Source of the DNA: a virus
Taxonomy: Duplodnaviria; Heunggongvirae; Uroviricota; Caudoviricetes
Length of the DNA: 30,855 nt
Strand: one strand, 5' to 3'
Virus record (IMG/VR): IMGVR_UViG_2874956758_000002
Span: 1 to 30,855 of that record
The notes under the pieces are model-generated. The model made no database searches and was not told the origin of the DNA. It worked only from the letters and a program-made list of their open reading frames with translations. The translations under genes were made by a program, and so were the position numbers. Shown here one piece after another: positions 1,197 through 21,090 of the stretch. Positions within the stretch are counted from its first letter, which is position 1. The number at the start of each line of letters is the position of its first letter.

Positions 1197-2735
1197 TTAT
1201 TCAGCTGGCAGTGCTATGCGCCACGGAAGCAGTTCGCTGACCCGGTTGACCGGCCAGTCTGCTATGACGCCAAGCACATGGCGAAGGTAGCTTTCTGGAT
1301 CCACGTCATTCAGTTTGCACGTCCCGATCAGGCTGTACAGTAGCGCTCCCCGCTCACCACCATGGTCAGAGCCGAAGAACAGGAAGTTTTTACGACCCAG
1401 ACTGACCGCCCGCAGGGCATTTTCAGCGATGTTGTTGTCGATTTCCACCCAGCCATCGTTCGCATAGTACGTCAGTGCCGGCCACTGGTTAAGTGCGTAC
1501 GCGAACGCCTTCGCCAACTCTGAGTGTCGCGACAGGGTCTTCATCTTTTCACGCAACCAGCTTTCCAGGGATTTCAACAGCGGTTTCGTTTTTCGCTGAC
1601 GTTCAGCAAGCCGCTGCTCTGCCGGCATTCCCCTTATATCCGCCTCTATGGCGTACAACTGACCGAGCTGCTCCAGGGCTTCTTCCGTCAGTGCTGACGG
1701 GATGCGGACGTGCACATCGTGGATCTTTCGGCGGGCATGAGCCCAGCAGGCAGCTTCCGTTATCCCACCATTGCGGTACAGCTCGTTGAACCCGGCGTAC
1801 GCATCCGCTTGCAGCACACCGCTGAAGCAAGCAAGATGAGTCTGCGGATGGATGCCTTTTCTGTCCGGGCTGTAAGCGAACCACACTGCAGGTGCCAACG
1901 CTGACCCGGCATTGCGGTCATCACGAACATACGCCCACAACCGCCCGGTCTTCGTCTTCTTATTACCCGGCATCAGTACCTGGACCGGGGTATCATCAGC
2001 ATGGAGTTTGCCGTCAGTCATGACATAGCCATGAAGCGCCTCTTCCAGCGGAGACAGCAGCCGGCAGCATGCATCCACCCAGCCCGACAGCAGTGAACGG
2101 CTCAGCTCCACACCTTGCCGGCCGTATATTTCTGACTGGCGATACAGCGGGGTGTGCTCTGCATACTTCGAGGTCAGCACGCGGGCCAGCAGCCCCGGTC
2201 CGGCGATACCCCGCTCGATGGGCCGCGAAGGTGCAGGTGCCTGCACGATGGCATCGCACTGAGTACAGGCATGTTTTTCCCGTACCGTCCGGATAACCCG
2301 GAAGGCACTACGCATCAACTCCAGCTGTTCGGCGGTATCCTCGCCCAGATAGCTCAGTGAACCGCCGCAGTTCGGGCAGCACGGCGCCGCAGGCAACAGT
2401 CGCTTTTCGTCACGGGGTAGTGATTCAGGGAACGGCTTACGGGTGCGGGTCTGACGCAACGGACGCTGTACTGCCGGGTCATACACCCTACCAGTCAGCG
2501 TATCGCTCTCTTTCTGAAGCCGGTTCAGATCGGCTTCCATTTGTGCGATACGGCGGGAGACTTTTTCGGAACGACTGCCGAAGTTCATCCGGCGGAGTTT
2601 ATCCAGCTGCGCCTGCAGATGGTCTATTTCGCGCTCCCGGTTGCTCAGCTTTTCCTGCAGGGCATGGATCAGCGCTTCCTGTTCGGCCAGGCGCTGTTTC
2701 AGCAGGAAGATGTCGTCAGAAGAGATGTCGTTCAT
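1197..2735 (-). CDS. tnpC: IS66-family transposase TnpC
   Basis: 512-aa ORF with N-terminal coiled-coil, CxxC zinc-finger motifs (CCPNCGG, CTQCD) and the characteristic IS66 transposase core; near-identical to ORF 19558..21090. Confidence 0.9.
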
Positions 2736-2784
2736 AAGCCCGTATTTTACCGGGCTTATTCTGTGACAACCAGGATAAAGAGAT

Positions 2785-3132
2785 TTACAGCATGGTCAGG
2801 GAGGTCAGCAGCCGCTTAGGCTGTCGCCAGTCGATACCTTCCAGCAGCATCGCCAGCTGCGCCTGCGTAAGGAACACTTTGCCATCACGGGCTGACGGCC
2901 AGGCGAAGCGCCCACGCTCCAGCCGTTTGGTCAGGAGGCACAGTCCGTCACCGGTGGACCACAGCAGTTTAACCTGACTGCCGCTGCGGCCCCGGAAAAT
3001 GAAAACATGGCCGGACATGGGATCGTCTTTCAGCGCCGTCTGTACTTTCGCAGCCAGACCGTTGAAGCCATTTCTCATATCGGTGATACCGGCAACCAGC
3101 CAAATTTTGGTCCCGGAAGGTAACGGGATCAT
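2785..3132 (-). CDS. tnpB: IS66-family accessory protein TnpB (orf2)
   Basis: 115-aa ORF in the typical position, overlapping the upstream orfA stop (ATGA); identical to ORF 19161..19508. Confidence 0.9.
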
Positions 3133-3530
3133 CGCTTCAGTTCCTGTATCAGCAGAGTCAGGAGCTTTTCGCTGACATTGCCATTGAAGCGGAGCGTCCC
3201 GTGCCGGAACGTTACCTCACAGCTGATACTGAGGGTTTCCGGATCCTCTGCGAGCGATTCTGGCTGTTCGGCAGCTGCATCGAGAGTCACAGGAAGTAGC
3301 TGGGGGCTCTCTGAAGAAGGTAATAGCAGCTTTCCCTCGCGCCATTGTTGTCGCCATTTGAACAACAGATTGGCGTTAATGCCATTTTCAAGAGCAAGTT
3401 TTGAGATGGATATCCCGGGTTCACAGGAGGCAGCAACGAGCTGCTGTTTAAATTCGGGAGGATAATTAGGGCAGCCTTTTCGCCTGCCGGGAGTCACATT
3501 TTTCTGCATATCTGACACTTTGGTTCCCAC
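3129..3530 (-). CDS. tnpA: IS66-family accessory protein TnpA (orf1)
   Basis: 133-aa ORF, first gene of the IS66 operon; identical to ORF 18763..19164. Confidence 0.9.
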   Translation of the reverse strand: MGTKVSDMQKNVTPGRRKGCPNYPPEFKQQLVAASCEPGISISKLALENGINANLLFKWRQQWREGKLLLPSSESPQLLPVTLDAAAEQPESLAEDPETLSISCEVTFRHGTLRFNGNVSEKLLTLLIQELKR

Positions 3531-3600: not shown

Positions 3601-3704
3601 CGTTCTCCACCGACCTCTGTCAGATCGATTTCCCAGAGCACCACGCTGGCCGACTGCTCCGCACGGGTGCATTCATTCAGTGTTTCCTGCCGGATATCCT
3701 GCAT
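3601..3704 (-). pseudogene. L: 5' fragment (34 codons) of lambda-like minor tail protein L gene, interrupted by IS66 copy 1
   Basis: Minus-strand translation from ATG at 3702..3704 reads MQDIRQETLNECTRAEQSASVVLWEIDLTEVGGE, matching the lambda gpL N-terminus as recalled. Ends in GGAGAACG directly abutting the IS66 terminus. Confidence 0.85.
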
Positions 3705-4033
3705 CAGTTCACCACCTGTTCAAACTCTGCGCTGAACTCAACACGCAGCATACTGACCCGCGACGACCATTTTGCGCAGGTCACCTTTATCTGCCGCCAC
3801 TCATAAGGCGGCGTCCACAGAAAGGACTTCCAGCCCCCGTGCTCAGCCAGAAACGACTCAAGCGCCGTGGCCTCCCAACGGGGAACAGAAAGCGTCACGC
3901 TGTACGTTTTCAGGTCGGCATTCAGCCCGGCAGGCGCTCGCTGGGAATAGCCATCACCAAAGCGCACCTTTCTTACGGAAGGGGCCGAAGCCACATCCAT
4001 ACCGGGTTTCACTTTCCAGCGGAAGGTTTTCAT
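3704..4033 (-). CDS. M: lambda-like minor tail protein M
   Basis: 109-aa ORF (MKTFRWKVKPGMDV...FEQVVN) matching lambda gpM in sequence and length; stop overlaps the L start in ATGA. Confidence 0.9.
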   Translation of the reverse strand: MKTFRWKVKPGMDVASAPSVRKVRFGDGYSQRAPAGLNADLKTYSVTLSVPRWEATALESFLAEHGGWKSFLWTPPYEWRQIKVTCAKWSSRVSMLRVEFSAEFEQVVN

Positions 4034-6591
4034 CGTCCACCTCCGGAGAACAGACCACCATCGCGCATCTGCCCGGTCACAACATCCATTGCCGCCTTAC
4101 GGGCTACGTCATAAACCGCCTTCAGCGCCTGTGGCCCTATCTGACCGTTCGTGCCGTCGTTGTTAATCACCACATGGTTATTCTGCTCAAACGTCCCGGA
4201 CGCCTGCGAGCGGCTGTCCGCCATGCTGCCCGGTGTACCGACATAACCGCCGGTGGCATAGCCGCGCATCAGCCGGTAGAGATTTCCCACGCCAATCCGG
4301 CTGGTTGCCTCCTTCGTGAAGACAAATTCACCACGGTGAACAATCCCCGCTGGCTCATATTTGCCGCCGGTTCCCGTAAATCCTCCGGTTGCAAAATGGA
4401 ATTTCGCCGCAGCGGCCTGAATGGCTGTACCGCCTGACGCGGATGCGCCGCCACCAACAGCCCCGCCAATGGCGCTGCCGATACTCCCGACAATCCCCAC
4501 CATTGCCTGCTTAAGCAGAATTTCTGTCATCATGGACAGCACGGAACGGGTGAAGCTGCGCCAGTTCTGCTCACTGCCGGTCAGCATCGCCGCCATATTC
4601 TGTGCAATACCATCAAAGGTCTGCGTGGCTGCACTTTTTACCTGCGACATACTGTCCGTGGCGCTCTCTTCCCACTCACTCCAGCCGGACTTCAGACCTG
4701 CCATCCAGCTCCCGCGAAGCTGGTCTTCAGCCGCCCAGGTCTTTTTCTGCTCTGACATGACGTTATTCAGCGCCAGCGGATTATCGCCATACTGTTCCTT
4801 CAGGCGCTGTTCCGTGGCTTCCCGTTCTGCCTGCCGGTCAGTCAGCCCCCGGCTTTTCGCATCAATGGCGGCCCGTTTTGCCCGTTGCTGCTGTGCGAAT
4901 TTATCCGCCTGCTGCGCCAGCGCGTTCAGGCGCTCCTGATACGTAACCTTGTCGCCAAGTGCAGCCAGCTGGCGTTTGTACTCCAGCGTCTCATCTTTAT
5001 GCGCCAGCAGGGATTTCTCCTGTGCAGACAGCTGGCGACGTTGCGCCGCCTCCTCCAGTACCGCGAACTGACTCTCCGCCTTCCACAAATCCCGGCGCTG
5101 CTGGCTGATTTTCTCATTTGCTCCGGCATGCTTCTCCAGCGTCCGGAGTTCAGCCTGAAGCGTCAGCAGGGCAGCATGAGCACTGTCTTCCTGACGATCG
5201 CCCGCAGACACCTTCACGCCGGACTGTTTCGGCTTTTTCAGCGTCGCTTCATAGTCCTTTTTCGCCGCCGCCATCAGCGTGTTGTAATCTGCCTGCAGAA
5301 TTTTCCCGTCCTTCAGTGCCTTGTTCAGTTCTTCCTGACGGGCGGTATATTTCTCCAGCGGCGTCTGCAGCCGTTCGTAAGCTTTCTGCGCCTCTTCGGT
5401 ATATTTCAGCCGTGACGCTTCAGTATCGCTCTGCTGCTGCGCATTTTTGTCCTGTTGACTCTGCTGTTCAGCCTTCTTTCTCGCGGCTTCAAGCGCAAGA
5501 CGGGCCTTTTCACGATCATCCCAGTAACGCGCCCGCGCTTCATCGTTAACAAAATAATCATCCTTGCGCAGACTCCAGATGTCGTCCGCTTTCTTAAACG
5601 CAGCCTCTGCCTTAATCAGCATCTCCTGAGCGGTATCAGGACGACCAATATCCAGCACCGCATCCCACATGGATTTGAATGCCCGCGCTGTCCTGTCTGC
5701 CCAGGTCTCCAGCGTACCCATGTTCTCTTTCAGACGGCGGGTCTGGTCATCAAACCCTTTCGTCGCGGCCTCGTTCGCCGCCTGCAATGCCCCGGCTTCT
5801 TCGCCGGAACGCTGCAACTGAGCAACATACGCAATCTGCTCCGCCGTCACGTTATGGAACTGGCGCGCCATCGCTGTCAGCCCCGACGTCGGGTCAGTGG
5901 TCAGCTTCCCGAAGGCTTCAGCGACCTTGTCCACCTCCACGCCGGATGCAGAGGAGAAACGCGCCACACTCTGGCTGATGGACGCAATCTGAGCCTCACC
6001 GCTTACCCCCGCCTTAACCAGTGAGCTGAGTGACTCGCTGGTCTGGTTAAACGTCAGCCCTGCCGCCTGGCCAGCTCTGGACAGGACCAGCATACGATCT
6101 GCCGTCAGCCCCGACTGATTGCCGGAAAGGACCAGCGTTTTGTTGAAATCGGACAGGGTTGAGTTGCCCTGATACCAGGCATACGCCAGCGCACCGGTCG
6201 CCACCGCCAGCGAGGTGGCCCCGACCATCGGCAGGGTGATCGCACCGGCAAGCCCCCGGAACATGGGGATTATCCCGCCGAAGGAGTCCTTCACCTGCCC
6301 CCCCTGTTGCAGCAGGATCAGCCACGGACTTTGCCCGCCTGCAAGCTGCGTGGCCACGTCGGTGAACTGTGCAGGCAGCATACGCATGGCGGCTTTATAC
6401 TGCCCGACGGAAATCCCCGCTTTCTGTGCAGCCAGCGCCTGCCGGTTCATCGACTGTTCAACGACTGCCGCTGTTTTTTTCGCATCACTTTCCGTACCGG
6501 AAAAATGACGCCTGACTCTGGCCATCTGCTCGTCAAATCTGGCCGCATCCAGACTTAAATCAACGACCAGATCGCCTACCGGTTCAGCCAT
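4030..6591 (-). CDS. H: lambda-like tail tape measure protein H
   Basis: 853-aa ORF, same length as lambda gpH; long coiled-coil/Ala-Gln-rich centre and Gly-rich C-terminal region; positioned between G/T and M. Confidence 0.9.
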   Translation of the reverse strand: MAEPVGDLVVDLSLDAARFDEQMARVRRHFSGTESDAKKTAAVVEQSMNRQALAAQKAGISVGQYKAAMRMLPAQFTDVATQLAGGQSPWLILLQQGGQVKDSFGGIIPMFRGLAGAITLPMVGATSLAVATGALAYAWYQGNSTLSDFNKTLVLSGNQSGLTADRMLVLSRAGQAAGLTFNQTSESLSSLVKAGVSGEAQIASISQSVARFSSASGVEVDKVAEAFGKLTTDPTSGLTAMARQFHNVTAEQIAYVAQLQRSGEEAGALQAANEAATKGFDDQTRRLKENMGTLETWADRTARAFKSMWDAVLDIGRPDTAQEMLIKAEAAFKKADDIWSLRKDDYFVNDEARARYWDDREKARLALEAARKKAEQQSQQDKNAQQQSDTEASRLKYTEEAQKAYERLQTPLEKYTARQEELNKALKDGKILQADYNTLMAAAKKDYEATLKKPKQSGVKVSAGDRQEDSAHAALLTLQAELRTLEKHAGANEKISQQRRDLWKAESQFAVLEEAAQRRQLSAQEKSLLAHKDETLEYKRQLAALGDKVTYQERLNALAQQADKFAQQQRAKRAAIDAKSRGLTDRQAEREATEQRLKEQYGDNPLALNNVMSEQKKTWAAEDQLRGSWMAGLKSGWSEWEESATDSMSQVKSAATQTFDGIAQNMAAMLTGSEQNWRSFTRSVLSMMTEILLKQAMVGIVGSIGSAIGGAVGGGASASGGTAIQAAAAKFHFATGGFTGTGGKYEPAGIVHRGEFVFTKEATSRIGVGNLYRLMRGYATGGYVGTPGSMADSRSQASGTFEQNNHVVINNDGTNGQIGPQALKAVYDVARKAAMDVVTGQMRDGGLFSGGGR

Positions 6592-6973
6592 ACCGGACTC
6601 CTCCTGCGATCCCTTCTGATACTGTCATCAGCATTACGTCATCCTCCGTCATGTCCGCTACATCCGGGGAAGCGGGGATAACTTCTTTCCCGTCCGGGCC
6701 AAAACGAACGCCTCCGGCAAGCCCTACCGCTTTCTGCATCAGCACATCATCTTCAGGCTCTTCGTCAGCCTCACGCCGGTTAAGCAGACTGAAATCCAGC
6801 GGATGCATATCCGGATCGCTGAAAAACAGGCTGAGCACGGTATATGTCAGCCCGGAAAAGTGCATATCCAGCAGAACATCATGAAAATAATGGGTACTGT
6901 AAAAGCGGTGCCAGTCGGGTCGCCCCATCTCACGCGCCAGTTTCAGGGCAAAACTCAGCTCACCGTCGAACAC
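6584..6973 (-). CDS. T: T-frame portion of tail assembly chaperone GT (expressed by -1 frameshift from G)
   Basis: ORF in the -1 frame relative to G, overlapping the G 3' end and the H start; acidic residues typical of the gpT domain. Confidence 0.8.
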   Translation of the reverse strand: MFDGELSFALKLAREMGRPDWHRFYSTHYFHDVLLDMHFSGLTYTVLSLFFSDPDMHPLDFSLLNRREADEEPEDDVLMQKAVGLAGGVRFGPDGKEVIPASPDVADMTEDDVMLMTVSEGIAGGVRYG

Positions 6974-7377
6974 TTTCCCGCAGAAACAGGCTCTGCAGGC
7001 CCGGCGTCATCTGCCTGTTCAGGAGCATCATTCACCACAAACTCATACATACCGGACAGCCGGTACACCACGTTTTCAGCATGAGAAATTGCCTCCGTGG
7101 GCCAGGTGGTAAGCACTTCCTGCTCAATCTGTTTAACGGCTTCATTCATGGAAGGCAGCTTTGTCTTCTGCGGATGGTTATGCCACAGGGACATCGCCAC
7201 CACAAAAGCGCCGGTTCTGATGGCGTCTTCCACAGTAAACTTCCGGTTGCTGTCTGACTCCGCCTGTTCTGCCTGTCGTTTCATCAGGGCGAGATGCTCA
7301 ATACGCTGCAGGGCTGACAGTTCAGAAAGCGTGACGGTCACACCGTTATGTTCAAATGATTCGGTTTTCAGGAACAT
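6955..7377 (-). CDS. G: lambda-like tail assembly chaperone G
   Basis: 140-aa ORF (MFLKTESFEHNGVTVTLSELSALQRIEHL...) matching lambda gpG. Confidence 0.9.
   Translation of the reverse strand: MFLKTESFEHNGVTVTLSELSALQRIEHLALMKRQAEQAESDSNRKFTVEDAIRTGAFVVAMSLWHNHPQKTKLPSMNEAVKQIEQEVLTTWPTEAISHAENVVYRLSGMYEFVVNDAPEQADDAGPAEPVSAGKCSTVS
6973..6979 (-). promoter_or_regulatory. Programmed -1 ribosomal frameshift slippery heptamer GGGAAAG (G to GT)
   Basis: Plus strand reads CTTTCCC at 6973..6979, i.e. GGGAAAG on the coding strand at the G/T overlap, as in lambda. Confidence 0.8.
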
Positions 7378-7392
7378 CGCTGACTCTCCGGA

Positions 7393-8133
7393 TTAACTGG
7401 CGGTGACGTTGATTTCTGCAACCGCAGCAAGTTCACCATTACCGGATACGACAGGAATGTTGACCTTGCCTGCAGCAACACCTTTCACGGTGATGGTCAT
7501 ACCACTGACCGACACGGTGGCTTTTGTTTTATCCGCAGACACCGCACGGAGGCTCTTGTCGGTTGCGCCTTCCGGCTGGAATGCCACGGTCAGCGTGGTG
7601 CTCTGCCCTTTCACCACCGAGGTGCTGGCAGGCGTCACGGTCATGCCGGTTGCCGCTGTGACCGTGCTGCGATCTTCTGCCATCGACGGACGTCCCACGT
7701 TGGTGACTTTCACCGTGCGGGTGATCACTTCCTTCGCCGTCACCGCCTTACCGATACTGCTGACCCAGCCGCGGAACACATCGACCGTGCCGTTCGGGAA
7801 GCGGATTTTATAGGCACGGGTATCCCCTTCATTAAACCACGCCAGCAGCGCCTGCTGCCCCTGCTCTCCGGGCATCCACGCCAGCGTGAAGCTGGTATCT
7901 CCGGCAGATTTCTGCCCCTGCCCGGTCGCAGTCCAGTCCGCATCTTCATCATCGAGATAGCTGTCGTCATAGGACTCAGCGGTCAGTTCGCCGGGCGTCA
8001 GGTCTTTAACTTTAGCCAGACGCGACCAGTCAACGTCTGAAAGCGGGTTCGCATAAGGATCACCGTTCCCCTTATAAACCCACAGTGTGGTCCCGGCCCC
8101 TTTCACCGGCATTACTGGATTTGATACAGGCAT
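7393..8133 (-). CDS. V: lambda-like major tail protein V
   Basis: Matches lambda gpV from [22 protein letters not shown]; start chosen at the internal Met (8133) giving 246 aa as in lambda; the ORF track extends 10 codons further upstream. Confidence 0.85.
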
Positions 8134-8140
8134 ATCGTCC

Positions 8141-8536
8141 TCACATTTCATAGGTAATGACATAAGTCAGATCGGCTGAACTCCACAGGCCCGCATCATC
8201 GTCGCGCCGGTAGTCATAGCCGCTGGCCACCATACTGGTGATCAAATCTGACAGTGCCGGGATATCGCTCATCACCGGATAAATCCGGGACTCCATCCAC
8301 GAATCCAGCTCTGAATCCGGCACCTGAGCAGGCAGGAAAACTTCAATATGCAGCTCCGCCTGCCAGGTATCGCTGTCCAGCTCTTCGCCCGTGTATTCAG
8401 CGCCGGTGAGATAAACGGCAATTGCCGGAAAATCCGCCTCATCAAAAACAGCGGGGCGACCATCAAAAAGCGTCGCCCCGGTGTCATGCTTTTCCAGTGC
8501 ATCCAGTACGGCTGCACGGAGTTCAGTATGTTTCAT
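8141..8536 (-). CDS. U: lambda-like tail terminator protein U
   Basis: 131-aa ORF ([33 protein letters not shown]...) matching lambda gpU. Confidence 0.9.
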
Positions 8537-9110
8537 CGCTTTATTACCATTCTCAGTTGATGCTGCAGCGCATAGCCCAGCTCTTTCGGAAGACGTTCAC
8601 GCCGTATCCGTTCAATATTCTGTTTAAATGCCGTGGTAAGCGGCACCGCCATCGGAATTTTCACCACATCAATGGGGTAACGATTTTTCCCGGCCACACG
8701 CTGCATGACATGCCACCGGCCATTTTTCAGTTGCTGAATAAACGCGCCGGGAATACGACGGTTACCCACCACAAGCACGCTGCCGCCACCTTTCAGGGAT
8801 GAACGCTGCCCCTTTTTACGACGCCTGCGGCGGGACAGGACAACCCGCGCATTACCCAGCTTGATTACGGGCAAATCCCCCGGTTAACTTTGATTCTGGC
8901 CTGCGGATTTTTGACCGTGGCCCTTTTCAGCCTGGCCCTTTCCTTTACCAGTTTCCGGCGTACCTTTGTCTCACGGGCAACCTGTGACGCCGACTGCGAT
9001 ATCGCGGATGAAGCAACGCGGTTAATGGCCATTGCGGCGGCACCAGGGACCGCCGTTTTGCTGATACGGCTGAGGTTTTCAACGGCCTGCTCAAGACCTT
9101 TTATGGCCAT
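8533..9110 (-). pseudogene. Z: lambda-like tail completion protein Z, disrupted by a 1-bp deletion in a G run (or sequencing error)
   Basis: N-terminal 78 aa (ORF 8865..9110) and C-terminal 113 aa (ORF 8533..8874) both match lambda gpZ but lie in different frames. The frame break is at the C5 run 8877..8881 (G5 on the coding strand), where lambda as recalled has G6. Confidence 0.8.
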
Positions 9111-9121
9111 ACATCCCCCTT

Positions 9122-9475
9122 TCAGCGGCGACGGTTAACGGCAGGCGGTACGCCCCGTCCAAGCCAGAGATGACAGCTTCCACCATCATCCGGCGAAACC
9201 CGATCTACCCAGAAGTTTTCCTCACCGATGGTCAGCGTGTCTCCACGCCGCAGCTGCAGCACCTCATCAGTCCGGACAAACAGGGGCGGGCTGGAGCCTT
9301 CAACGCGCACGCCCTGTCCGGCATAGCTGATATTTTCAGGGTCATCAAAAACACCACGTATCACAGCACCGGACTGCTCACCGGATGTCATGGTGGCTGA
9401 CGTTCCCATGTACCCGCGTATCGTTTCATCGGCTCGGGCAATGGCAGCATCGAACAGATTATCGAAATCAGCCAC
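9122..9475 (-). CDS. FII: lambda-like head-tail joining protein FII
   Basis: 117-aa ORF (MADFDNLFDAAIARADETIRGYMG...) matching lambda gpFII in sequence and length. Confidence 0.9.
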   Translation of the reverse strand: MADFDNLFDAAIARADETIRGYMGTSATMTSGEQSGAVIRGVFDDPENISYAGQGVRVEGSSPPLFVRTDEVLQLRRGDTLTIGEENFWVDRVSPDDGGSCHLWLGRGVPPAVNRRR

Positions 9476-9486
9476 AGCGCCTCCCG

Positions 9487-9882
9487 TTATTGCATTCTGG
9501 CCAGGCCGCGCTCTGTCATTTCAACTGCCACACCGGCAGAGACACGGAACGCCGTTCCCGGCAGCACAAATGCCACAGGTTCATCCCGCGTGGCGTGAAG
9601 TGCATCGGTATGCAGCGTCACCAGTGCCACAACCGTGACCAGAGCAGCCGTATCAGTCACGGTATCCGTCTGTGCTGATACCACCTCATTTTTATGTCCG
9701 GTCAGCGCATTTTCCGGGCTGACAGACGTGTCCTGACCGGCTGCGTCATCCGTGTCATCAAGCTCCTCTTCCAGCTCTGCCACACGGAGCGCCAGTTCTT
9801 CTTTCGTCCCCGTCAGGCTGACATCACGGTTCAGTTGCTCACCCAGCGACCGGAGACGGGCAATCAGTTCATCTTTCGTCAT
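9487..9882 (-). CDS. FI: lambda-like DNA packaging protein FI
   Basis: Matches lambda gpFI from MTKDELIARLRSLGEQLNRDVSL; start at the internal Met preceded by GGAGGA. Confidence 0.85.
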   Translation of the reverse strand: MTKDELIARLRSLGEQLNRDVSLTGTKEELALRVAELEEELDDTDDAAGQDTSVSPENALTGHKNEVVSAQTDTVTDTAALVTVVALVTLHTDALHATRDEPVAFVLPGTAFRVSAGVAVEMTERGLARMQ

Positions 9883-9923
9883 GGACTCCTCCACAGAGAG
9901 AAAATGGCCCCGAAGGGCCATGA

Positions 9924-10961
9924 TTACGCCAGTTGAACGGACACGAACTCATCAGGATCAGCCAGCAGCATCAGCGGTGCTGACTGAATCATGGTGAACT
10001 CTCGCGCCGGATCGCCGGATGTCTTCCAGTTTTTCGGATAACGGGGAGACGCATTAATACCCTCACTCAATGCATCCGCATCCTGAATACAGCCATAGGT
10101 ACGCAGACCGCGTGCATGAGTGTTACCCAGCACCATCGTGTTGTCCGGCAGGAAGTTCTTTTTGACGCCGTTTTCCACGTACTGTCCGGAATACACGACG
10201 ATGGCCACATCGCCATACATTCCCTTATAAGACACCGCTTTGCCCAGGTCTTTTACCGCTGTCTCCAGTTCGGAATTAGAACCACGACGGGTATCCAGAG
10301 CCTCTTTTATCGCTCTGAATGAACGGTATTTCTTCCATACATTACCGCCCATAATGATGATATTAGTGACGCCCTCACTAAATTCTGCGTAGCTCTCAAT
10401 ATCATCATTTGGATCAAAAGTTTCTTTATCCTTACCTGACCACTCAGCACCGCCAAACTGAGTGATGATATTTTGTGGTTTAATATTCCAGTCCAGCTCA
10501 TAACGTTCAATACCATCGCCCTCAATGATATTTTTCCCCGTTGTGATTGCCTGAACAGCAAGCCATTCAATACGTGCACGAATAGCTTTAGCTTGATTTA
10601 CAATCGCCTGTTTAACTTTAATATTACGCGCCCCAAAAGCATTGTATTGCTCAGGTGATACACCAGCAGGGCGCACAGCTAACTTATTTGGATCAATGCT
10701 GCTTTTCGGCTTCATATAGCCTGGACGAATTGTTTTTGATTCGTACCCTTCGTCACGTGAAACTTTACTACCCACCATAGGAGAACAAAACGCTGCAATT
10801 GGGATATTTGGATCGTCGATTGTATCAAGAATAATATCGCGCGATTCAAACATTACCGAGCGAGTAAAAAACAAACTGGTAAACAACGCATTTAGTTGTT
10901 TTTGTACATCTACAGCATTAACCACCTGTACAAGCTGAGTAGGCGAATATAAATCAACCAT
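9924..10961 (-). CDS. E: major capsid protein, lambda gpE family (mosaic: divergent 5' two-thirds, lambda-like 3' third)
   Basis: C-terminal ~115 aa (from LDTRRGSNSELETAVKDLGKAVSYKGMYGDV to SVQLA) are near-identical to lambda gpE as recalled; the N-terminal ~230 aa are homologous but divergent and AT-rich. Start assigned to ATG at 10959..10961 (MVDLYSPTQL) preceded by AGAGGA. Confidence 0.8.
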   Translation of the reverse strand: MVDLYSPTQLVQVVNAVDVQKQLNALFTSLFFTRSVMFESRDIILDTIDDPNIPIAAFCSPMVGSKVSRDEGYESKTIRPGYMKPKSSIDPNKLAVRPAGVSPEQYNAFGARNIKVKQAIVNQAKAIRARIEWLAVQAITTGKNIIEGDGIERYELDWNIKPQNIITQFGGAEWSGKDKETFDPNDDIESYAEFSEGVTNIIIMGGNVWKKYRSFRAIKEALDTRRGSNSELETAVKDLGKAVSYKGMYGDVAIVVYSGQYVENGVKKNFLPDNTMVLGNTHARGLRTYGCIQDADALSEGINASPRYPKNWKTSGDPAREFTMIQSAPLMLLADPDEFVSVQLA

Positions 10962-11178
10962 ACGCATCCTCTTTGCATTCATTAAAAATAATTGTGGATA
11001 TATGCTATCACCGATATTTGTCATGCGAACACATGCAACCGAGTGCAATGTTGTATAAAGTTTTGGGGTGACAACTTCAGTGCGGACAATTAGTGTTAAT
11101 ATCTTCACTCCCTTTGGTCGGGATTTATGTAGCATGCTGGAAAATTTATTTTTTCCGGCCTTTTTTTATTGGCAATAT

Positions 11179-11628
11179 TTAAAACGGGATATCATCTCCC
11201 CATTGCTCATTATCTCCCACTGGTGGCTGGCTTCCTTGCTGATCTGCCTGTTGTTTTGCTCTGTTCAGTGCGTCAGTAGCCTGCCCCTGTTGGCCTTTAT
11301 TGCCGCCCGGTCGCACCGATCGCGCACTGATTACGCTGTCTGCGATAACCTGCCAGCCCAGCCGCGTTTCGCCGTTCTGTCCAGTCCACTGGCTCGTCTG
11401 CATGTTACCCGCCACGCTCAGGAGTTCGCCTTTGTGATGCTTTGCCAGCGCGTCGGCTTGTCTGCCAAACGCCAGGACAGATAACCACATCGTCGCCTGA
11501 CCGTCATCCGACTGACTGCAGGGCAGTGATACCGCCATACGCGCCAGCGTCATGGGGGTGCCCTTGCTAGTCTGTTTTGTCTGCGGGTCGTCCACCAACC
11601 GCCCGTAAACTGATATTTGCGCCGTCAT
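11179..11628 (-). CDS. ssb: phage-type single-stranded DNA-binding protein (SSB)
   Basis: 149-aa ORF with an OB-fold-like N-terminal region, a Gly/Gln-rich linker and the SSB C-terminal acidic tail ending DDIPF. Confidence 0.75.
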   Translation of the reverse strand: MTAQISVYGRLVDDPQTKQTSKGTPMTLARMAVSLPCSQSDDGQATMWLSVLAFGRQADALAKHHKGELLSVAGNMQTSQWTGQNGETRLGWQVIADSVISARSVRPGGNKGQQGQATDALNRAKQQADQQGSQPPVGDNEQWGDDIPF

Positions 11629-11634
11629 GCTGCC

Positions 11635-11961
11635 TGAGGTAGCCTGAGTTTAACGGACACTCCTTCCTGAAATAGAATGGCATCAGAAGGAGCTAATAAT
11701 GAGCAGAAAAACCCAACGTTACTCTAAAGAGTTCAAAGCCGAAGCTGTCAGAACGGTTCTTGAAAATCAACTTTCGATCAGTGAAGGCGCTTCCCGATTA
11801 TCCCTTCCTGAAGGCACTTTAGGACAATGGGTTACCGCCGCCAGAAAAGGGCTCGGTACTCCTGGTTCCCGCACGGTGGCTGAACTGGAATCTGAAATTC
11901 TGCAACTGCGTAAGGCGTTAAATGAAGCTCGCCTTGAGCGAGATATATTAAAAAAAGCAAC
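11635..11961 (+). mobile_element. IS3-family (IS600-like) left-end fragment: IRL plus 5' ~93 codons of orfA, arm 1 of an inverted pair flanking IS30
   Basis: Begins TGAGGTAGCCTGAGTTTAACGG. Encodes the OrfA N-terminus MSRKTQRYSKEFKAEAVRTVLENQ...ILKKATVDS, then runs into the IS30 end; the rest of the element is absent. Confidence 0.7.
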
Positions 11962-13182
11962 TGTAGATTCAATTGGTCAACGCAACAGTTATGTGAAAAC
12001 ATGGGGTTGCGGAGGTTTTTTGAATGAGACGAACATTTACAGCAGAGGAAAAAGCCTCTGTTTTTGAACTATGGAAGAACGGAACAGGCTTCAGTGAAAT
12101 AGCGAATATCCTGGGTTCAAAACCCGGAACGATCTTCACTATGTTAAGGGATACTGGCGGCATAAAACCCCATGAGCGTAAGCGGGCTGTAGCTCACCTG
12201 ACACTGTCTGAGCGCGAGGAGATACGAGCTGGTTTGTCAGCCAAAATGAGCATTCGTGCGATAGCTACTGCGCTGAATCGCAGTCCTTCGACGATCTCAC
12301 GTGAAGTTCAGCGTAATCGGGGCAGACGCTATTACAAAGCTGTTGATGCTAATAACCGAGCCAACAGAATGGCGAAAAGGCCAAAACCGTGCTTACTGGA
12401 TCAAAATTTACCATTGCGAAAGCTTGTTCTGGAAAAGCTGGAGATGAAATGGTCTCCAGAGCAAATATCAGGATGGTTAAGGCGAACAAAACCACGTCAA
12501 AAAACGCTGCGAATATCACCTGAGACAATTTATAAAACGCTGTACTTTCGTAGCCGTGAAGCGCTACACCACCTGAATATACAGCATCTGCGACGGTCGC
12601 ATAGCCTTCGCCATGGCAGGCGTCATACCCGCAAAGGCGAAAGAGGTACGATTAACATAGTGAACGGAACACCAATTCACGAACGTTCCCGAAATATCGA
12701 TAACAGACGCTCTCTGGGACATTGGGAGGGCGATTTAGTCTCAGGTACAAAAAACTCTCATATAGCCACACTTGTAGACCGAAAATCACGTTATACGATC
12801 ATCCTTAGACTCAGGGGCAAAGATTCTGTCTCAGTAAATCAGGCTCTTACCGACAAATTCCTGAGTTTACCGTCAGAACTCAGAAAATCACTGACATGGG
12901 ACAGAGGAATGGAACTGGCCAGACATCTAGAATTTACTGTCAGCACCGGCGTTAAAGTTTACTTCTGCGATCCTCAGAGTCCTTGGCAGCGGGGAACAAA
13001 TGAGAACACAAATGGGCTAATTCGGCAGTACTTTCCTAAAAAGACATGTCTTGCCCAATATACTCAACATGAACTAGATCTGGTTGCTGCTCAGCTAAAC
13101 AACAGACCGAGAAAGACACTGAAGTTCAAAACACCGAAAGAGATAATTGAAAGGGGTGTTGCATTGACAGATTGAATCTACA
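11962..13182 (+). mobile_element. IS30, complete (1221 bp)
   Basis: Terminal inverted repeats TGTAGATTCAAT at both ends; single 383-aa transposase ORF; length matches IS30. Confidence 0.9.
12024..13175 (+). CDS. insI: IS30 transposase
   Basis: 383-aa ORF with N-terminal HTH and C-terminal DDE domain, recognised as the IS30 transposase. Confidence 0.9.
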   Translation: MRRTFTAEEKASVFELWKNGTGFSEIANILGSKPGTIFTMLRDTGGIKPHERKRAVAHLTLSEREEIRAGLSAKMSIRAIATALNRSPSTISREVQRNRGRRYYKAVDANNRANRMAKRPKPCLLDQNLPLRKLVLEKLEMKWSPEQISGWLRRTKPRQKTLRISPETIYKTLYFRSREALHHLNIQHLRRSHSLRHGRRHTRKGERGTINIVNGTPIHERSRNIDNRRSLGHWEGDLVSGTKNSHIATLVDRKSRYTIILRLRGKDSVSVNQALTDKFLSLPSELRKSLTWDRGMELARHLEFTVSTGVKVYFCDPQSPWQRGTNENTNGLIRQYFPKKTCLAQYTQHELDLVAAQLNNRPRKTLKFKTPKEIIERGVALTD

Positions 13183-13508
13183 GTTGCTTTTTTTAATATA
13201 TCTCGCTCAAGGCGAGCTTCATTTAACGCCTTACGCAGTTGCAGAATTTCAGATTCCAGTTCAGCCACCGTGCGGGAACCAGGAGTACCGAGCCCTTTTC
13301 TGGCGGCGGTAACCCATTGTCCTAAAGTGCCTTCAGGAAGGGATAATCGGGAAGCGCCTTCACTGATCGAAAGTTGATTTTCAAGAACCGTTCTGACAGC
13401 TTCGGCTTTGAACTCTTTAGAGTAACGTTGGGTTTTTCTGCTCATTATTAGCTCCTTCTGATGCCATTCTATTTCAGGAAGGAGTGTCCGTTAAACTCAG
13501 GCTACCTC
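13183..13508 (-). mobile_element. IS3-family (IS600-like) left-end fragment, arm 2, inverted copy of 11635..11961
   Basis: Reverse complement reproduces the same IRL and OrfA N-terminus (ORF 13095..13445 is identical through VDSI). Its outer end overlaps the xis start codon. Confidence 0.7.
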
Positions 13509-13745
13509 ATGGGCAATGTGATTCAACTGGCTCCCAATGAATGGGTTTGTGAAAGCGTTCTTATCGCAATTACCGGGCTCAAACCAGGCACAATTCTCCG
13601 AGCCCGGAAAGAATGCTGGATGGTAGGAAGAGAGTATATTCACGTATCACCAGACGGTAATCCAAAGCCATCCAGCGAATGTATGTATAACAGAAAAGCA
13701 ATAGATGCCTGGGTCTCTTCAATGAAAAACAAACAACCTGGGTGA
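13508..13745 (+). CDS. xis: putative excisionase (DUF1233-type Xis)
   Basis: Small ORF immediately upstream of and co-oriented with the integrase; motif pattern (IQLAPNEWV...LTGLKPGTI.RARKECWMVGREY) resembles DUF1233 excisionases as recalled. Start taken at ATG 13508..13510; the ORF track begins 16 codons upstream, inside the IS arm. Confidence 0.6.
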
Positions 13746-13800: not shown

Positions 13801-15114
13801 ATGGATAAAGTCAAATATCCAACAGGCGTCGAAAACCACGGTGGCACATTACGCATCTGGTTTAATTTTAAAGGTAAACGTGTCAGGGAAAATCTTGGTG
13901 TCCCTGACACTGCCAAGAACAGGAAGATCGCCGGAGAGCTGCGGACATCTGTATGTTTTGCCATTCGTACAGGAAATTTTGATTATGCTGCGCAGTTCCC
14001 TGACTCTCCTAACCTCAAGGCTTTTGGGGTAAATAAAAAAGAAATTACGGTGAAAGAACTTGAAGAAAAATGGCTGGATCTGAAACGAATGGAAATCTCT
14101 GCAAATGCATTCAATCGCTATGAATCCATTGCAAGGATGATGGTTCCGAAGATTGGTGGCAACCGACTGGTATCAGCAGTGACCAAAGAGGAATTGCTGT
14201 ATATCAGGAAAGATTTGCTGACCGGATACCAAAATCCAACAAAAGGTAAAGCTCCAGTAAAAGGACGAAGCGTTGTCACAGTAAATTATTACATGACAAC
14301 AATCGCTGGAATGTTTCAGTTTGCTGCAGATCACGGTTACTTAGAAGCAAATCCCTTCGAGGGAATTAAGCCTCTTAAAAGAGCCAAGGCAGAACCAGAT
14401 CCGCTAACTCGTGACGAATTTATTCGCCTGATAGATGCTTGCCGGCATCAGCAGACAAAAAACCTGTGGTCATTGGCTGTGTACACAGGAATGCGTCATG
14501 GTGAACTGGTCTCCCTGGCCTGGGAAGATATCGATCTGAAAGCAGGAACAATTACTATCAGGCGCAATTATACGAAACTCGGTGAGTTCACTCTACCTAA
14601 AACTGAAGCAAGTACAAACAGGGTTGTGCATCTTATCCAGCCCGCTATCAGTGTCCTGAAAAATCAGGCTGAAATGACAAGACTGGGTAAGCAGCACAAC
14701 ATCAAGGTTCAACTACGTGAATATGGACGTTCAGTAAATCATGAATGTACTTTCGTATTTAACCCCCAGGTGGTTAGAAAAAGCAAACAGGTAGGTTTTA
14801 TCTACAAGGTAGATTCCATTGGCGACTCATGGGAAACAGCCATTAAACGTGCAGGCATCAGGCATCGAAAGGCATACCAGTCACGACACACTTATGCGTG
14901 CTGGTCATTATCTGCCGGAGCAAATCCAAGCTTCATTGCCAGCCAGATGGGGCATGCAAGTGCCCAGATGGTGTTCAATGTATACGGAGCATGGATGACT
15001 GACAGCAATGCAGAACAGATCGCAATGCTGAATCAGAAGCTGGCAGATTATGTCCCAATGATGTCCCATGGTCACCAAAGTGACACAAGAGGCTTATTAA
15101 AATCAGTGAGTTAG
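13801..15114 (+). CDS. int: prophage tyrosine integrase
   Basis: 437-aa ORF with a C-terminal tyrosine-recombinase catalytic region (R...HxxR...Y); RBS GGAGG upstream; reads toward the host junction as lambda int does. Confidence 0.9.
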   Translation: MDKVKYPTGVENHGGTLRIWFNFKGKRVRENLGVPDTAKNRKIAGELRTSVCFAIRTGNFDYAAQFPDSPNLKAFGVNKKEITVKELEEKWLDLKRMEISANAFNRYESIARMMVPKIGGNRLVSAVTKEELLYIRKDLLTGYQNPTKGKAPVKGRSVVTVNYYMTTIAGMFQFAADHGYLEANPFEGIKPLKRAKAEPDPLTRDEFIRLIDACRHQQTKNLWSLAVYTGMRHGELVSLAWEDIDLKAGTITIRRNYTKLGEFTLPKTEASTNRVVHLIQPAISVLKNQAEMTRLGKQHNIKVQLREYGRSVNHECTFVFNPQVVRKSKQVGFIYKVDSIGDSWETAIKRAGIRHRKAYQSRHTYACWSLSAGANPSFIASQMGHASAQMVFNVYGAWMTDSNAEQIAMLNQKLADYVPMMSHGHQSDTRGLLKSVS

Positions 15115-15918: not shown

Positions 15919-18066
<2,148 letters not shown>

Positions 18067-18071
18067 AGATT

Positions 18072-18094
18072 AGCGCCCGTTTCCGGGCGCTTTT
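18072..18094. terminator. rho-independent terminator between cmoB and the torZ remnant (likely bidirectional)
   Basis: GC-rich hairpin AGCGCCCG-TTTC-CGGGCGCT followed by TTTT, immediately after the cmoB stop. Confidence 0.7.
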
Positions 18095-18100
18095 CACGTC

Positions 18101-18331
18101 TTATGCCTGAACAGCTGGCTGATCAAACGCCGTTAACTTCGGCGCATTGCTCGTATATTTTTCGATATACACCAGCGCAGAGTTACCGGCACAGACATTT
18201 GCCAGCTGAGAGCTGGGGATATCCGCCGTTAACACGTTCGCACTGCCGTTTTTACACAAGCCATTTTCCAGATCTGGCCATGCACCTTCATGCACGCATA
18301 CCACGCCTTTTTTGATCCCGTCAGTCACCAC
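18101..18331 (-). pseudogene. torZ: 3' remnant of a molybdopterin oxidoreductase gene, probably torZ
   Basis: 76 codons with DMSO-reductase-family C-terminal character, convergent with cmoB as torZ is in K-12. No ATG (frame starts at GTG); the remaining ~700 codons are absent, replaced upstream by IS sequence. Confidence 0.55.
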
Positions 18332-18387
18332 CGCGCCTGTCAGAATCGGGGATGCGGACGATTTCCTGGACTCTCAGGAGATAACAC

Positions 18388-18692
18388 ATGTTTACTGAAG
18401 AAGAAAAAATCCGCGCCATTGAGCTTTATTTCAAATATGGTAAGAAGCTGGCTCCCGTCGTACGCGAACTGGGCTACCCTTCGAAAAGAAATCTGCGGCG
18501 TTGGATCCGCTCATGGGAAGCAGGTGGTGGCGCAAAAGAATCTATTCGTCATAAGCACCGTTACTCCGATGAACAAAAACAGGTTGCCGTTGAACATTAT
18601 CTTAACCACGGCTGCTGCCTGGCGTTTACCAGCAGAGCCCTGGGTTATCCCTGCACTGATGTACTCGCTCGCTGGGTTAATGAACTTTATCC
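18388..18692 (+). pseudogene. IS3-family (IS150-group-like) orfA 5' fragment, truncated by IS66 copy 2
   Basis: 102-aa ORF with two tandem HTH-like motifs; the ORF runs straight into the IS66 terminus, which supplies the last base of the final codon and the stop. Confidence 0.6.
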
Positions 18693-18762
18693 GTAAGCGT
18701 ACAGCCTGAACCGTCTGGTCAGAATCTGACGAATTAGACAAAGTGGTGTCCACCAATAAGTA

Positions 18763-19164
18763 GTGGGAACCAAAGTGTCAGATATGCAGAAAAATGTGAC
18801 TCCCGGCAGGCGAAAAGGCTGCCCTAATTATCCTCCCGAATTTAAACAGCAGCTCGTTGCTGCCTCCTGTGAACCCGGGATATCCATCTCAAAACTTGCT
18901 CTTGAAAATGGCATTAACGCCAATCTGTTGTTCAAATGGCGACAACAATGGCGCGAGGGAAAGCTGCTATTACCTTCTTCAGAGAGCCCCCAGCTACTTC
19001 CTGTGACTCTCGATGCAGCTGCCGAACAGCCAGAATCGCTCGCAGAGGACCCGGAAACCCTCAGTATCAGCTGTGAGGTAACGTTCCGGCACGGGACGCT
19101 CCGCTTCAATGGCAATGTCAGCGAAAAGCTCCTGACTCTGCTGATACAGGAACTGAAGCGATGA
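18763..19164 (+). CDS. tnpA: IS66-family TnpA (orf1)
   Basis: 133 aa, identical to 3129..3530 product. Confidence 0.9.
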   Translation: MGTKVSDMQKNVTPGRRKGCPNYPPEFKQQLVAASCEPGISISKLALENGINANLLFKWRQQWREGKLLLPSSESPQLLPVTLDAAAEQPESLAEDPETLSISCEVTFRHGTLRFNGNVSEKLLTLLIQELKR

Positions 19165-19508
19165 TCCCGTTACCTTCCGGGACCAAAATTTGGCTGGTTG
19201 CCGGTATCACCGATATGAGAAATGGCTTCAACGGTCTGGCTGCGAAAGTACAGACGGCGCTGAAAGACGATCCCATGTCCGGCCATGTTTTCATTTTCCG
19301 GGGCCGCAGCGGCAGTCAGGTTAAACTGCTGTGGTCCACCGGTGACGGACTGTGCCTCCTGACCAAACGGCTGGAGCGTGGGCGCTTCGCCTGGCCGTCA
19401 GCCCGTGATGGCAAAGTGTTCCTTACGCAGGCGCAGCTGGCGATGCTGCTGGAAGGTATCGACTGGCGACAGCCTAAGCGGCTGCTGACCTCCCTGACCA
19501 TGCTGTAA
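19161..19508 (+). CDS. tnpB: IS66-family TnpB (orf2)
   Basis: 115 aa, identical to 2785..3132 product. Confidence 0.9.
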
Positions 19509-19557
19509 ATCTCTTTATCCTGGTTGTCACAGAATAAGCCCGGTAAAATACGGGCTT

Positions 19558-21090
19558 ATGAACGACATCTCTTCTGACGACATCTTCCTGCTGAAACAGC
19601 GCCTGGCCGAACAGGAGATCCACGCCCTGCAGGAAAAGCTGAGCAACCGGGAGCGCGAAATAGACCATCTGCAGGCGCAGCTGGATAAACTCCGCCGGAT
19701 GAACTTCGGCAGTCGTTCCGAAAAAGTCTCCCGCCGTATCGCACAAATGGAAGCCGATCTGAACCGGCTTCAGAAAGAGAGCGATACGCTGACTGGTAGG
19801 GTGTATGACCCGGCAGTACAGCGTCCGTTGCGTCAGACCCGCACCCGTAAGCCGTTCCCTGAATCACTACCCCGTGACGAAAAGCGACTGTTGCCTGTGG
19901 CGCCGTGCTGCCCGAACTGCGGCGGTTCACTGAGCTATCTGGGCGAGGATACCGCCGAACAGCTGGAGTTGATGCGTAGTGCCTTCCGGGTTATCCGGAC
20001 GGTACGGGAAAAACATGCCTGTACTCAGTGCGATGCCATCGTGCAGGCACCTGCACCTTCGCGGCCCATCGAGCGGGGTATCGCCGGACCGGGGCTGCTG
20101 GCCCGCGTGCTGACCTCGAAGTATGCAGAGCACACCCCGCTGTATCGCCAGTCAGAAATATACGGCCGGCAAGGTGTGGAGCTGAGCCGTTCACTGCTGT
20201 CGGGCTGGGTGGATGCATGCTGCCGGCTGCTGTCTCCGCTGGAAGAGGCGCTTCATGGCTATGTCATGACTGACGGCAAACTCCATGCTGATGATACCCC
20301 GGTCCAGGTACTGATGCCGGGTAATAAGAAGACGAAGACCGGGCGGTTGTGGGCGTATGTTCGTGATGACCGCAATGCCGGGTCAGCGTTGGCACCTGCA
20401 GTGTGGTTCGCTTACAGCCCGGACAGAAAAGGCATCCATCCGCAGACTCATCTTGCTTGCTTCAGCGGTGTGCTGCAAGCGGATGCGTACGCCGGGTTCA
20501 ACGAGCTGTACCGCAATGGTGGGATAACGGAAGCTGCCTGCTGGGCTCATGCCCGCCGAAAGATCCACGATGTGCACGTCCGCATCCCGTCAGCACTGAC
20601 GGAAGAAGCCCTGGAGCAGCTCGGTCAGTTGTACGCCATAGAGGCGGATATAAGGGGAATGCCGGCAGAGCAGCGGCTTGCTGAACGTCAGCGAAAAACG
20701 AAACCGCTGTTGAAATCCCTGGAAAGCTGGTTGCGTGAAAAGATGAAGACCCTGTCGCGACACTCAGAGTTGGCGAAGGCGTTCGCGTACGCACTTAACC
20801 AGTGGCCGGCACTGACGTACTATGCGAACGATGGCTGGGTGGAAATCGACAACAACATCGCTGAAAATGCCCTGCGGGCGGTCAGTCTGGGTCGTAAAAA
20901 CTTCCTGTTCTTCGGCTCTGACCATGGTGGTGAGCGGGGAGCGCTACTGTACAGCCTGATCGGGACGTGCAAACTGAATGACGTGGATCCAGAAAGCTAC
21001 CTTCGCCATGTGCTTGGCGTCATAGCAGACTGGCCGGTCAACCGGGTCAGCGAACTGCTTCCGTGGCGCATAGCACTGCCAGCTGAATAA
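19558..21090 (+). CDS. tnpC: IS66-family transposase TnpC
   Basis: 510 aa; versus copy 1 lacks two codons (EQEIHALQ vs [10 protein letters not shown]) and has A for V at one position (PAAPCC vs PVAPCC). Confidence 0.9.

Follow-up and report, generated by a model that had tools for sequence, protein, structure and literature searches.

How does a phage major capsid gene come to carry a front and a back of different ancestry, and what becomes of the gene once the two are joined? The question is raised by a stretch of 30,855 nt of virus DNA (the window, meaning the whole stretch), the Caudoviricetes record IMGVR_UViG_2874956758_000002 of IMG/VR, which over the stretch compared (positions 1-20961) is identical to the Shigella dysenteriae sequence CP026831.1. 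A first-pass annotation had read the major capsid gene of this window as a recombinant of two lambdoid phage lineages. We find that the gene is indeed a recombinant, but that the second parent is not lambdoid. We consider it about 85% probable that the gene consists of the front of the capsid gene of a satellite, a phage-inducible chromosomal island (PICI), and the back of the capsid gene E of its helper prophage, left by satellite-helper recombination in a remnant that is now dead.

Two parents of the capsid gene

The capsid gene occupies 9924..10961 on the minus strand and encodes 345 aa (homologues have 341-346 aa). It lies within an unbroken open reading frame (ORF) at 9924..11135 (-), and its start at the ATG at 10961, with an AGAGGA ribosome-binding site 7 nt upstream, agrees with the 346-aa homologues. 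The protein is listed by NCBI as WP_128881606.1, "major capsid protein [Shigella dysenteriae]", and matches the Pfam family Phage_cap_E (PF03864) with 179.6 bits (cut-off 22.9) over residues 12-343 (profile 4-328 of 329), as well as the lambda gpE structure (PDB 7vi9, 7vi9_A) at E = 1e-114 (residues 12-345 versus 8-341). To map the crossover, the gene was aligned with the PICI capsid alleles of two related loci, L007 and L001, and with the E gene of phage ev099. The parts of the gene and the satellite DNA upstream of it are as follows:

9924..10263, minus strand: 3' third of the capsid gene (nt 699-1038, codons 233-345 and stop), helper prophage lambda-family E
10264..10276, minus strand: crossover interval (nt 686-698, codons 229-233, motif LDTRRGSNSELE), a 13-bp run common to both parents
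10277..10961, minus strand: 5' two-thirds of the capsid gene (nt 1-685), capsid gene of an 11capE-type helper-embedded PICI
10962..11178, minus strand: SSB-capsid spacer, 217 bp, satellite DNA, inside a 99.07% alignment with L007
11179..11628, minus strand: PICI SSB (single-stranded DNA-binding protein) gene, 149 aa, Pfam SSB 59.7 bits, the last gene left of the satellite replication zone

Over nt 1-685 the gene agrees with the PICI allele of L007 at 683 of 685 positions and with that of L001 at 682 of 685, and is only 47.8% identical to ev099 E; over nt 699-1038 it agrees with ev099 E at 339 of 340 positions and is 54.5% identical to the L007 allele. Lambda E itself is 91.1% identical in nucleotides over this 3' third, so that the earlier assignment of the back of the gene to the lambda family, and of the front to a divergent member of the E family, both stand. 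At the protein level 227 of 228 residues of the N-terminal part are those of the PICI capsid and all 110 of the C-terminal part those of ev099 E, the parent proteins being 38% and 47% identical to each other over the same parts. The sole amino acid difference from the PICI parent is S169F (codon 169, window ~10455-10457); 97 of the 100 homologues compared carry one of the residues A, S, V and T there, and F is carried by none. The alignments identify the 5' 685 nt, together with the spacer and the SSB gene, as satellite DNA and the 3' 340 nt as helper E DNA.

The switch between parents is clean in three- and four-way alignments. The final PICI-specific site is nt 685 (window 10277) and the earliest E-specific site nt 699 (window 10263), an interval that overlaps the junction first placed at 10270..10290 and slightly refines it. 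The composition of the region changes with its ancestry, and the AT-rich character and differing codon usage earlier attributed to the 5' part and its leader are borne out by the GC content overall and at third codon positions (GC3):

Capsid gene 5' part: GC 0.411, GC3 0.329
Capsid gene 3' part: GC 0.533, GC3 0.598
SSB-capsid spacer: GC 0.369
Upstream SSB gene: GC 0.578

In 150-bp windows the GC content is not uniform: it shifts from ~0.53-0.55 to ~0.40 near 10290, stays low until ~11150 and stands at 0.56-0.62 from ~11200. The 217-bp stretch that runs from the stop codon at 11179, where the upstream gene ends, to the capsid ATG had been called an upstream leader. It is the intergenic spacer between satellite SSB and capsid genes and not the leader of a phage head operon; a scan of it for promoters and terminators returned one weak sigma-70-like match, not above shuffled sequence.

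The two parent genes have little sequence in common. The longest stretch that they share without a mismatch is 14 bp (nt 664-677), and the 13 bp of the crossover come second; both lie inside one 35-bp patch with 3 mismatches, and blastn similarity between them is confined to E nt 624-758 (73.5%), within which the crossover falls. The peptide that the patch encodes, LDTRRGSNSELE, is conserved more strongly than any other motif of the family; it is nearly invariant among 100 homologues, with R226, G227 and E233 the same in all of them. The crossover by homologous recombination proposed in the first-pass annotation does not hold in that form, since 13 bp of identity within such a patch is not extended homology.

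Recombination at conserved patches commonly makes lambdoid phages mosaic, and both halves of the gene belong to Phage_cap_E, which is what would be expected had a crossover within the capsid gene united two lambdoid lineages whose E genes had diverged. The searches make this ordinary mosaic very improbable. Among 50,697 phage records, megablast matches were limited to the last third of the query (ev099 at 98.9% from position 881, lambda at 91.1% from position 853), and no record spanned at least 80% of it; a single phage matching the whole gene, which would have told against any mosaic, was thus not among them. In the same records the capsid 5' part, the spacer and the SSB gene had zero nucleotide matches, the 5' part reached at most 37.3% amino acid identity by tblastn, and the 5' type did not occur in phage head operons. 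In E. coli this type occurs inside islands with integrase, alpA and primase genes, embedded in E or B, and upstream of it in the window stand the satellite SSB gene and spacer rather than the decoration gene D.

The satellite parent and its place in the helper

The nature of the 5' parent is seen in E. coli. A megablast search of 5,426 complete E. coli genomes found none that spans at least 80% of the whole-gene query, but returned a second class of matches covering query positions 1-987 at ~97%. This class is an island of ~11 kb, present in MLI106K3 (L001), DSM 103246 (L007) and 13P477T (L010), with the order integrase, short helix-turn-helix (HTH) regulator (alpA-like), variable genes, Icd-like protein, DUF4222 and primase, followed by a small ORF, SSB, a 346-aa major capsid protein, a head decoration protein, HTH and cargo (DUF2971, a TIR-domain protein and others). 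The SSB gene of the window has its counterpart at the same position in all three, and window positions 10246-11636, comprising SSB, spacer and capsid 5' part, align with L007 13993-15383 at 99.07%. That satellite segment is found at a coverage of at least 80% in 366 of the 5,426 genomes, and the closely matching class in ~145, all three of those inspected sitting in E. A B-embedded relative, L009, is 88.9% identical to the window over the SSB-capsid segment.

In these relatives the island interrupts a prophage gene E of lambda type, with a 245-nt E 5' piece to its left and a 789-nt E 3' piece to its right; in blastn, ev099 E matches the left junction with nt 1-245 and the right one with nt 238-1026. 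The genes beyond the E 3' piece, FI, FII, Z, U, V and the rest, come in the order seen in the window. The satellite capsid gene and the helper E 3' piece are therefore diverged direct repeats lying ~3.5 kb apart, and the two parents, which had been taken to come from independent phages, occur in relatives on one molecule, the satellite inside the same E gene.

Such an element has been described. Tommasini, Mageeney & Williams (2023, PMC10111431) report Eco567.11capE as a "helper-embedded PICI" in prophage 50icd, at the site E:Phage_cap_E:80, with a common 10-bp identity block at its att sites and an E-family capsid gene of its own; they count 201 instances at the E codon-80 site and related islands in A, B, C and other late genes, and report that helper-embedded PICIs excise and replicate upon induction. 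According to the same paper, which cites Fillol-Salom 2018 on the point, 21 of the 29 reference PICIs have capsid homologues, and transfer does not depend on them.

The islands vary in ways that lie outside the fused gene. Otherwise near-identical islands differ in the content of their cargo slot, which lies between the PICI HTH gene and the right attachment site, attR: L007 has a TIR-domain protein at 17053-18195, L010 has DUF3892 and hypothetical genes at 11448-13385, and L001 (14907-15665 and 7776-8354) has DUF2971 and a TerS pseudogene, with SWIM and HicB genes in the early zone. These variable genes could be candidates for anti-phage defence. The E- and B-embedded islands are also mosaic relative to each other (L007 14001-16459 versus L009 9001-11430), with ~75-93% identity over SSB, spacer and the capsid gene as far as nt ~230, and ~97-100% over the remainder of the capsid gene and the decoration gene.

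Measured against an intact island, the window holds only a part. No PICI-clade integrase or AlpA-like regulator is present in it, though both are present in L001, L007 and L010; its sole integrase is of the prophage Arm-DNA-bind_2 type, beside yecE. The PICI primase and replication zone is absent except for SSB, and attL and attR (at E codon ~80), both verified in relatives, are both missing. What remains is the PICI segment 10277-11634 (99% identical to L007), which runs straight into the helper E 3' piece, FI, FII and the following genes, all on one strand. Of the satellite capsid gene the first 685-698 nt remain, and the rest, with the decoration gene, is deleted. The satellite in the window is a remnant of an 11capE-type member and not an intact one.

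Origin of the junction

As the parent genes are direct repeats on one strand, a single intramolecular exchange is sufficient to join them, and the frame is kept. A short-homology exchange between the satellite capsid gene and the helper E 3' piece would have joined them in frame by a deletion equivalent to L007 15366..18853 (3.49 kb), or ~3.48 kb in the L001 arrangement, as worked out from the mapped coordinates of these relatives. This step would have cost the satellite the last third of its capsid gene, its decoration and HTH genes, its cargo and attR, and the helper nt 238-686 of E. Without attR the satellite would be unable to excise and E would be beyond restoration, so that the satellite remnant would be welded to its helper. 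This in-situ deletion of 3.5 kb in an integrated composite is the best supported route, and the simplest because the composite arrangement is common in relatives.

Some points weigh against this account. An intact composite at yecE with attL and attR, which would represent the ancestral or reciprocal state, was not found in the lineage. The nearest integrase/excisionase relative inspected, FDAARGOS_944 (NZ_CP065613.1; L011/L012), carries a different head module: its int/xis at yecE are 99.6% identical, and it has a ClpP-capsid fusion head module and no satellite, so that it is uninformative about the ancestral composite. It shows that prophages at the yecE site exchange whole modules. (This genome, labelled E. 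coli, has ipaH and many IS600 copies.) Finally, at 13 bp the identity at the junction falls below what RecA usually requires for efficient exchange in E. coli; the join may have been the work of RecA, of a phage recombinase or of replication slippage.

A different route to the same right junction would be a single crossover, at the LDTRRGSNSELE patch, between a circular PICI, excised or incoming, and an intact helper E. The whole satellite would then have entered at codon ~230 and given two reciprocal hybrids, of which the one with E 5' and satellite 3' parts was lost in the deletion bounded by insertion sequences (IS) described below. The circle would yield the observed SSB-spacer context equally well, and helper-embedded PICIs do excise and replicate when induced (PMC10111431). 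It requires, however, an unoccupied helper E and a free satellite circle in one cell, whereas deletion in place requires just the arrangement known from relatives (~145 genomes, with three of three inspected in E); moreover, no hybrid of E 5' and satellite 3' parts occurs among 120 homologue cluster representatives. We regard the circle as possible but unlikely, with the qualification that the two routes are indistinguishable from the window itself, because the DNA that would discriminate between them lay on the left side, entirely within the deleted interval.

A decaying prophage remnant

The sequence around the fused gene records further losses. On either side of the satellite segment and the capsid gene the window has the following features:

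3704..9921, minus strand: helper genes FI, FII, Z (frameshifted), U, V, G, T, H and M (Pfam, identical locus L003)
11635..13509: palindrome of IS600' (327 bp), IS30 (1221 bp, 11962..13182) and 'IS600 (327 bp), 1,875 bp in all
13509..13745, plus strand: prophage excisionase (Pfam DUF1233)
13801..15114, plus strand: prophage integrase (Pfam Arm-DNA-bind_2, Phage_integrase)

Beyond the integrase follow the chromosomal genes yecE (DUF72), yecN, cmoA and cmoB. The int/xis pair next to yecE is the attL end of a dead helper prophage, and the same pair is found at yecE in 424 complete E. coli genomes. On the other side, the helper genes at 3704..9921, among which Pfam Packaging_FI and Phage_attach were matched, are 94-96% identical in nucleotides to those of the L007 composite.

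Between excisionase and SSB everything that an intact composite would have is gone, namely the prophage early and lysis genes, Nu1 to D, the E 5' piece and the PICI genes from integrase to primase. In their place lies the palindrome, whose arms are 353-bp inverted repeats, 99.15% identical, with both IS600 left ends (the left inverted repeats, IRLs) facing outward; its elements carry the RefSeq names IS600 and IS30 and the Pfam matches HTH_Tnp_1 and rve. PICI DNA stops 7-8 bp before the SSB ATG, at one outward-facing IS600 left end, and the other end of the palindrome abuts the excisionase start codon. The left-hand deletion is bounded by the palindrome, because its IRLs touch the one gene and lie within 7-8 bp of the other, and later activity of IS600 and IS30 would have removed all of these genes. 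The palindrome itself may have arisen when an IS30 within one IS600 targeted the corresponding site of another IS600 copy in inverted orientation. Several complete E. coli genomes likewise contain an IS30 that is flanked on one side by this IS600 5' fragment, and a further IS30 copy lies at 1-1152 of the window.

Elsewhere, two IS66-family copies in inverted orientation, at 1197-3530 (-) and 18763-21090 (+), bracket an inversion that parts the tail gene M (3704-4033, -) from L-K-I-J-lom-stf (21101 onward, +), with cmoA and cmoB between them; the IS66 copies would thus have turned a section of the tail operon round. A 139-aa ORF (18290-18709, +) with zero Pfam matches lies between cmoB and the second copy. 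The gene Z is split into ORFs at 8865..9110 and 8533..8874 (both minus, within 8533-9110), whereas three sister assemblies, L002, L004 and L005, have it intact, with 192 aa. L002 (JARFTJ010000001.1, 9320-9340, compared with window 11626-13509) has in turn lost the palindrome: 13 bp of the IS600 IRL, TGAGGTAGCCTGA, are joined there to codon 2 of SSB. It represents a secondary deletion at a TGA microhomology, in which the SSB ATG was lost, and, as it keeps 13 bp of the IS600 end, it descends from a state like that of the window. The locus as a whole is a decaying prophage remnant.

Fate of the fused gene

The fused gene has an unbroken ORF and a good ribosome-binding site, which weighs against its being inert. 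The join lies in the most conserved motif, so that a fold of HK97 type could survive it, and the identical protein is kept in several assemblies. A functional hybrid capsid under selection might serve in satellite-type capsid assembly, or in interference with or defence against lambdoid phages. We nevertheless hold selection for such a function to be improbable. The carriers appear to be one narrow lineage, and the window is without the upstream head genes, with terminase, portal, protease-scaffold and decoration genes all absent in cis. Nearby, Z is frameshifted, and a sister genome has no SSB start codon. S169F is a non-conservative substitution at a site that conserves small residues, and PICI capsid genes are reported, in the citation of Fillol-Salom 2018 by PMC10111431, to be dispensable for transfer. 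Given the missing assembly partners, the decaying neighbours, S169F and the reported dispensability of PICI capsids, the gene is very probably an inert relic, with a small chance that some expression or function is left.

Comparison with known satellites and phages

Eco567.11capE is the closest described counterpart. The SSB gene, the 217-bp spacer and the capsid 5' two-thirds of the window are 99% identical to E. coli islands of its type; such islands are co-oriented with the helper late genes and are followed by helper E 3', FI and FII, as in the window, and the integration point mapped in the relatives (E nt 238-245) is the published codon-80 site. Unlike Eco567.11capE, the window is without PICI int, alpA, primase, decoration gene, attL and attR, and its satellite capsid gene continues in frame into the helper E 3' piece. 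The 5' parent belongs to the E-family capsid genes borne by gram-negative PICIs such as EcCICFT073 (Fillol-Salom et al. 2018, as summarised in PMC10111431); in the window, unlike in these, the C-terminal third is replaced by helper sequence. Lambda gpE shares with the fused protein a full-length family match, and the last 113 residues of the fused protein differ from it at few positions and are those of ev099 E throughout. Over the first ~228 residues, identity to lambda-type E is only ~38%; SSB and not D stands ahead of the gene, and the genes for head-assembly partners are absent. The "elongated" PICIs of PMC10111431, which captured clusters of helper late genes and in which local helper genes were proposed to ease recombinational shuffling, are likewise products of satellite-helper recombination in the late region; they keep both att sites and remain bounded islands, whereas the window has a single junction that destroyed attR in a decayed prophage.

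That helper-embedded PICIs of this type exist, integrate into E and carry a capsid homologue of their own was known before. The new elements are the fusion documented between the capsid genes of satellite and helper, and the path of decay that it implies. A satellite-helper capsid fusion was not found in the main text or supplements of PMC10111431 or in the related literature searched, and the supplements contain no mention of Shigella, dysenteriae or CP026831. Late-gene shuffling was suggested by Tommasini et al. (2023), and the case of a capsid gene was not found documented there; the window supplies an example, at the level of base pairs, of a satellite recombining with the helper prophage that embeds it. 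It also points to a route by which such composites may decay, in which a single deletion at short homology takes away attR, traps the satellite where it is and ruins the helper capsid gene for good. The annotation "major capsid protein" hides a fusion of this kind, and satellite searches seeded with integrases, as in PMC10111431, miss such remnants.

Distribution of the junction

The exact fused protein is present on 9 contigs, from two NCBI assemblies and several Logan assemblies, and in the five loci viewed its neighbourhood is identical. The junction is carried by a closed 4.88-Mb chromosome, a second NCBI assembly and the Logan assemblies SRR36469256, ERR5982241 and ERR5984615, with flanks of 5-12 kb in the independent assemblies. 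The conserved patch shared by the parents could in principle have led an assembler to collapse two similar capsid genes into one; with an identical run of just 13-14 bp, far below any assembler k-mer or read length, and the same junction recovered in all of these assemblies, the chance of such an artefact is close to negligible.

Outside these carriers the junction was sought and not found. It occurs in none of the 5,426 complete E. coli genomes, whether the query is the whole gene or 161 bp across the junction (best full-length matches 86%), nor in phage or plasmid records, and neither IMG/VR nor the 185,579 GTDB species-representative genomes contain an exact copy of a 40-mer across it. By identities computed per segment, no other hybrid of satellite N-terminal and E C-terminal parts, nor the reverse, was seen among the 120 homologue cluster representatives. 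The assemblies with the junction appear to form one narrow lineage; the junction was found in S. dysenteriae assemblies only, and the event looks single and lineage-restricted.

The wider importance of the fusion is limited unless such junctions recur, since it is otherwise a relic of one lineage in an IS-ridden Shigella prophage. It is conceivable, though doubtful, that the LDTRRGSNSELE patch is a recurrent point of exchange between satellites and helpers, and that the hybrid is still able to assemble or interfere. Were the exchange recurrent, it would be a first step either to the capture of late genes and elongated PICIs or to permanent fusion, and the window would be the first caught example of a general route rather than a one-off scar. 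A recurrent breakpoint among PICI lineages was considered at this patch and rejected: the E- and B-embedded alleles switch at capsid nt ~230, not at the conserved patch.

The search for homologues also returned long entries in which Phage_cap_E is combined with a second family, of decoration-protein, FI or terminase type: PF02924 (P0005, P0019), Packaging_FI (P0021, P0024, P0036) and PF05876 (P0098). These long fusion entries lie mostly on short contigs and may be frameshift or read-through calls, or further rearrangements.

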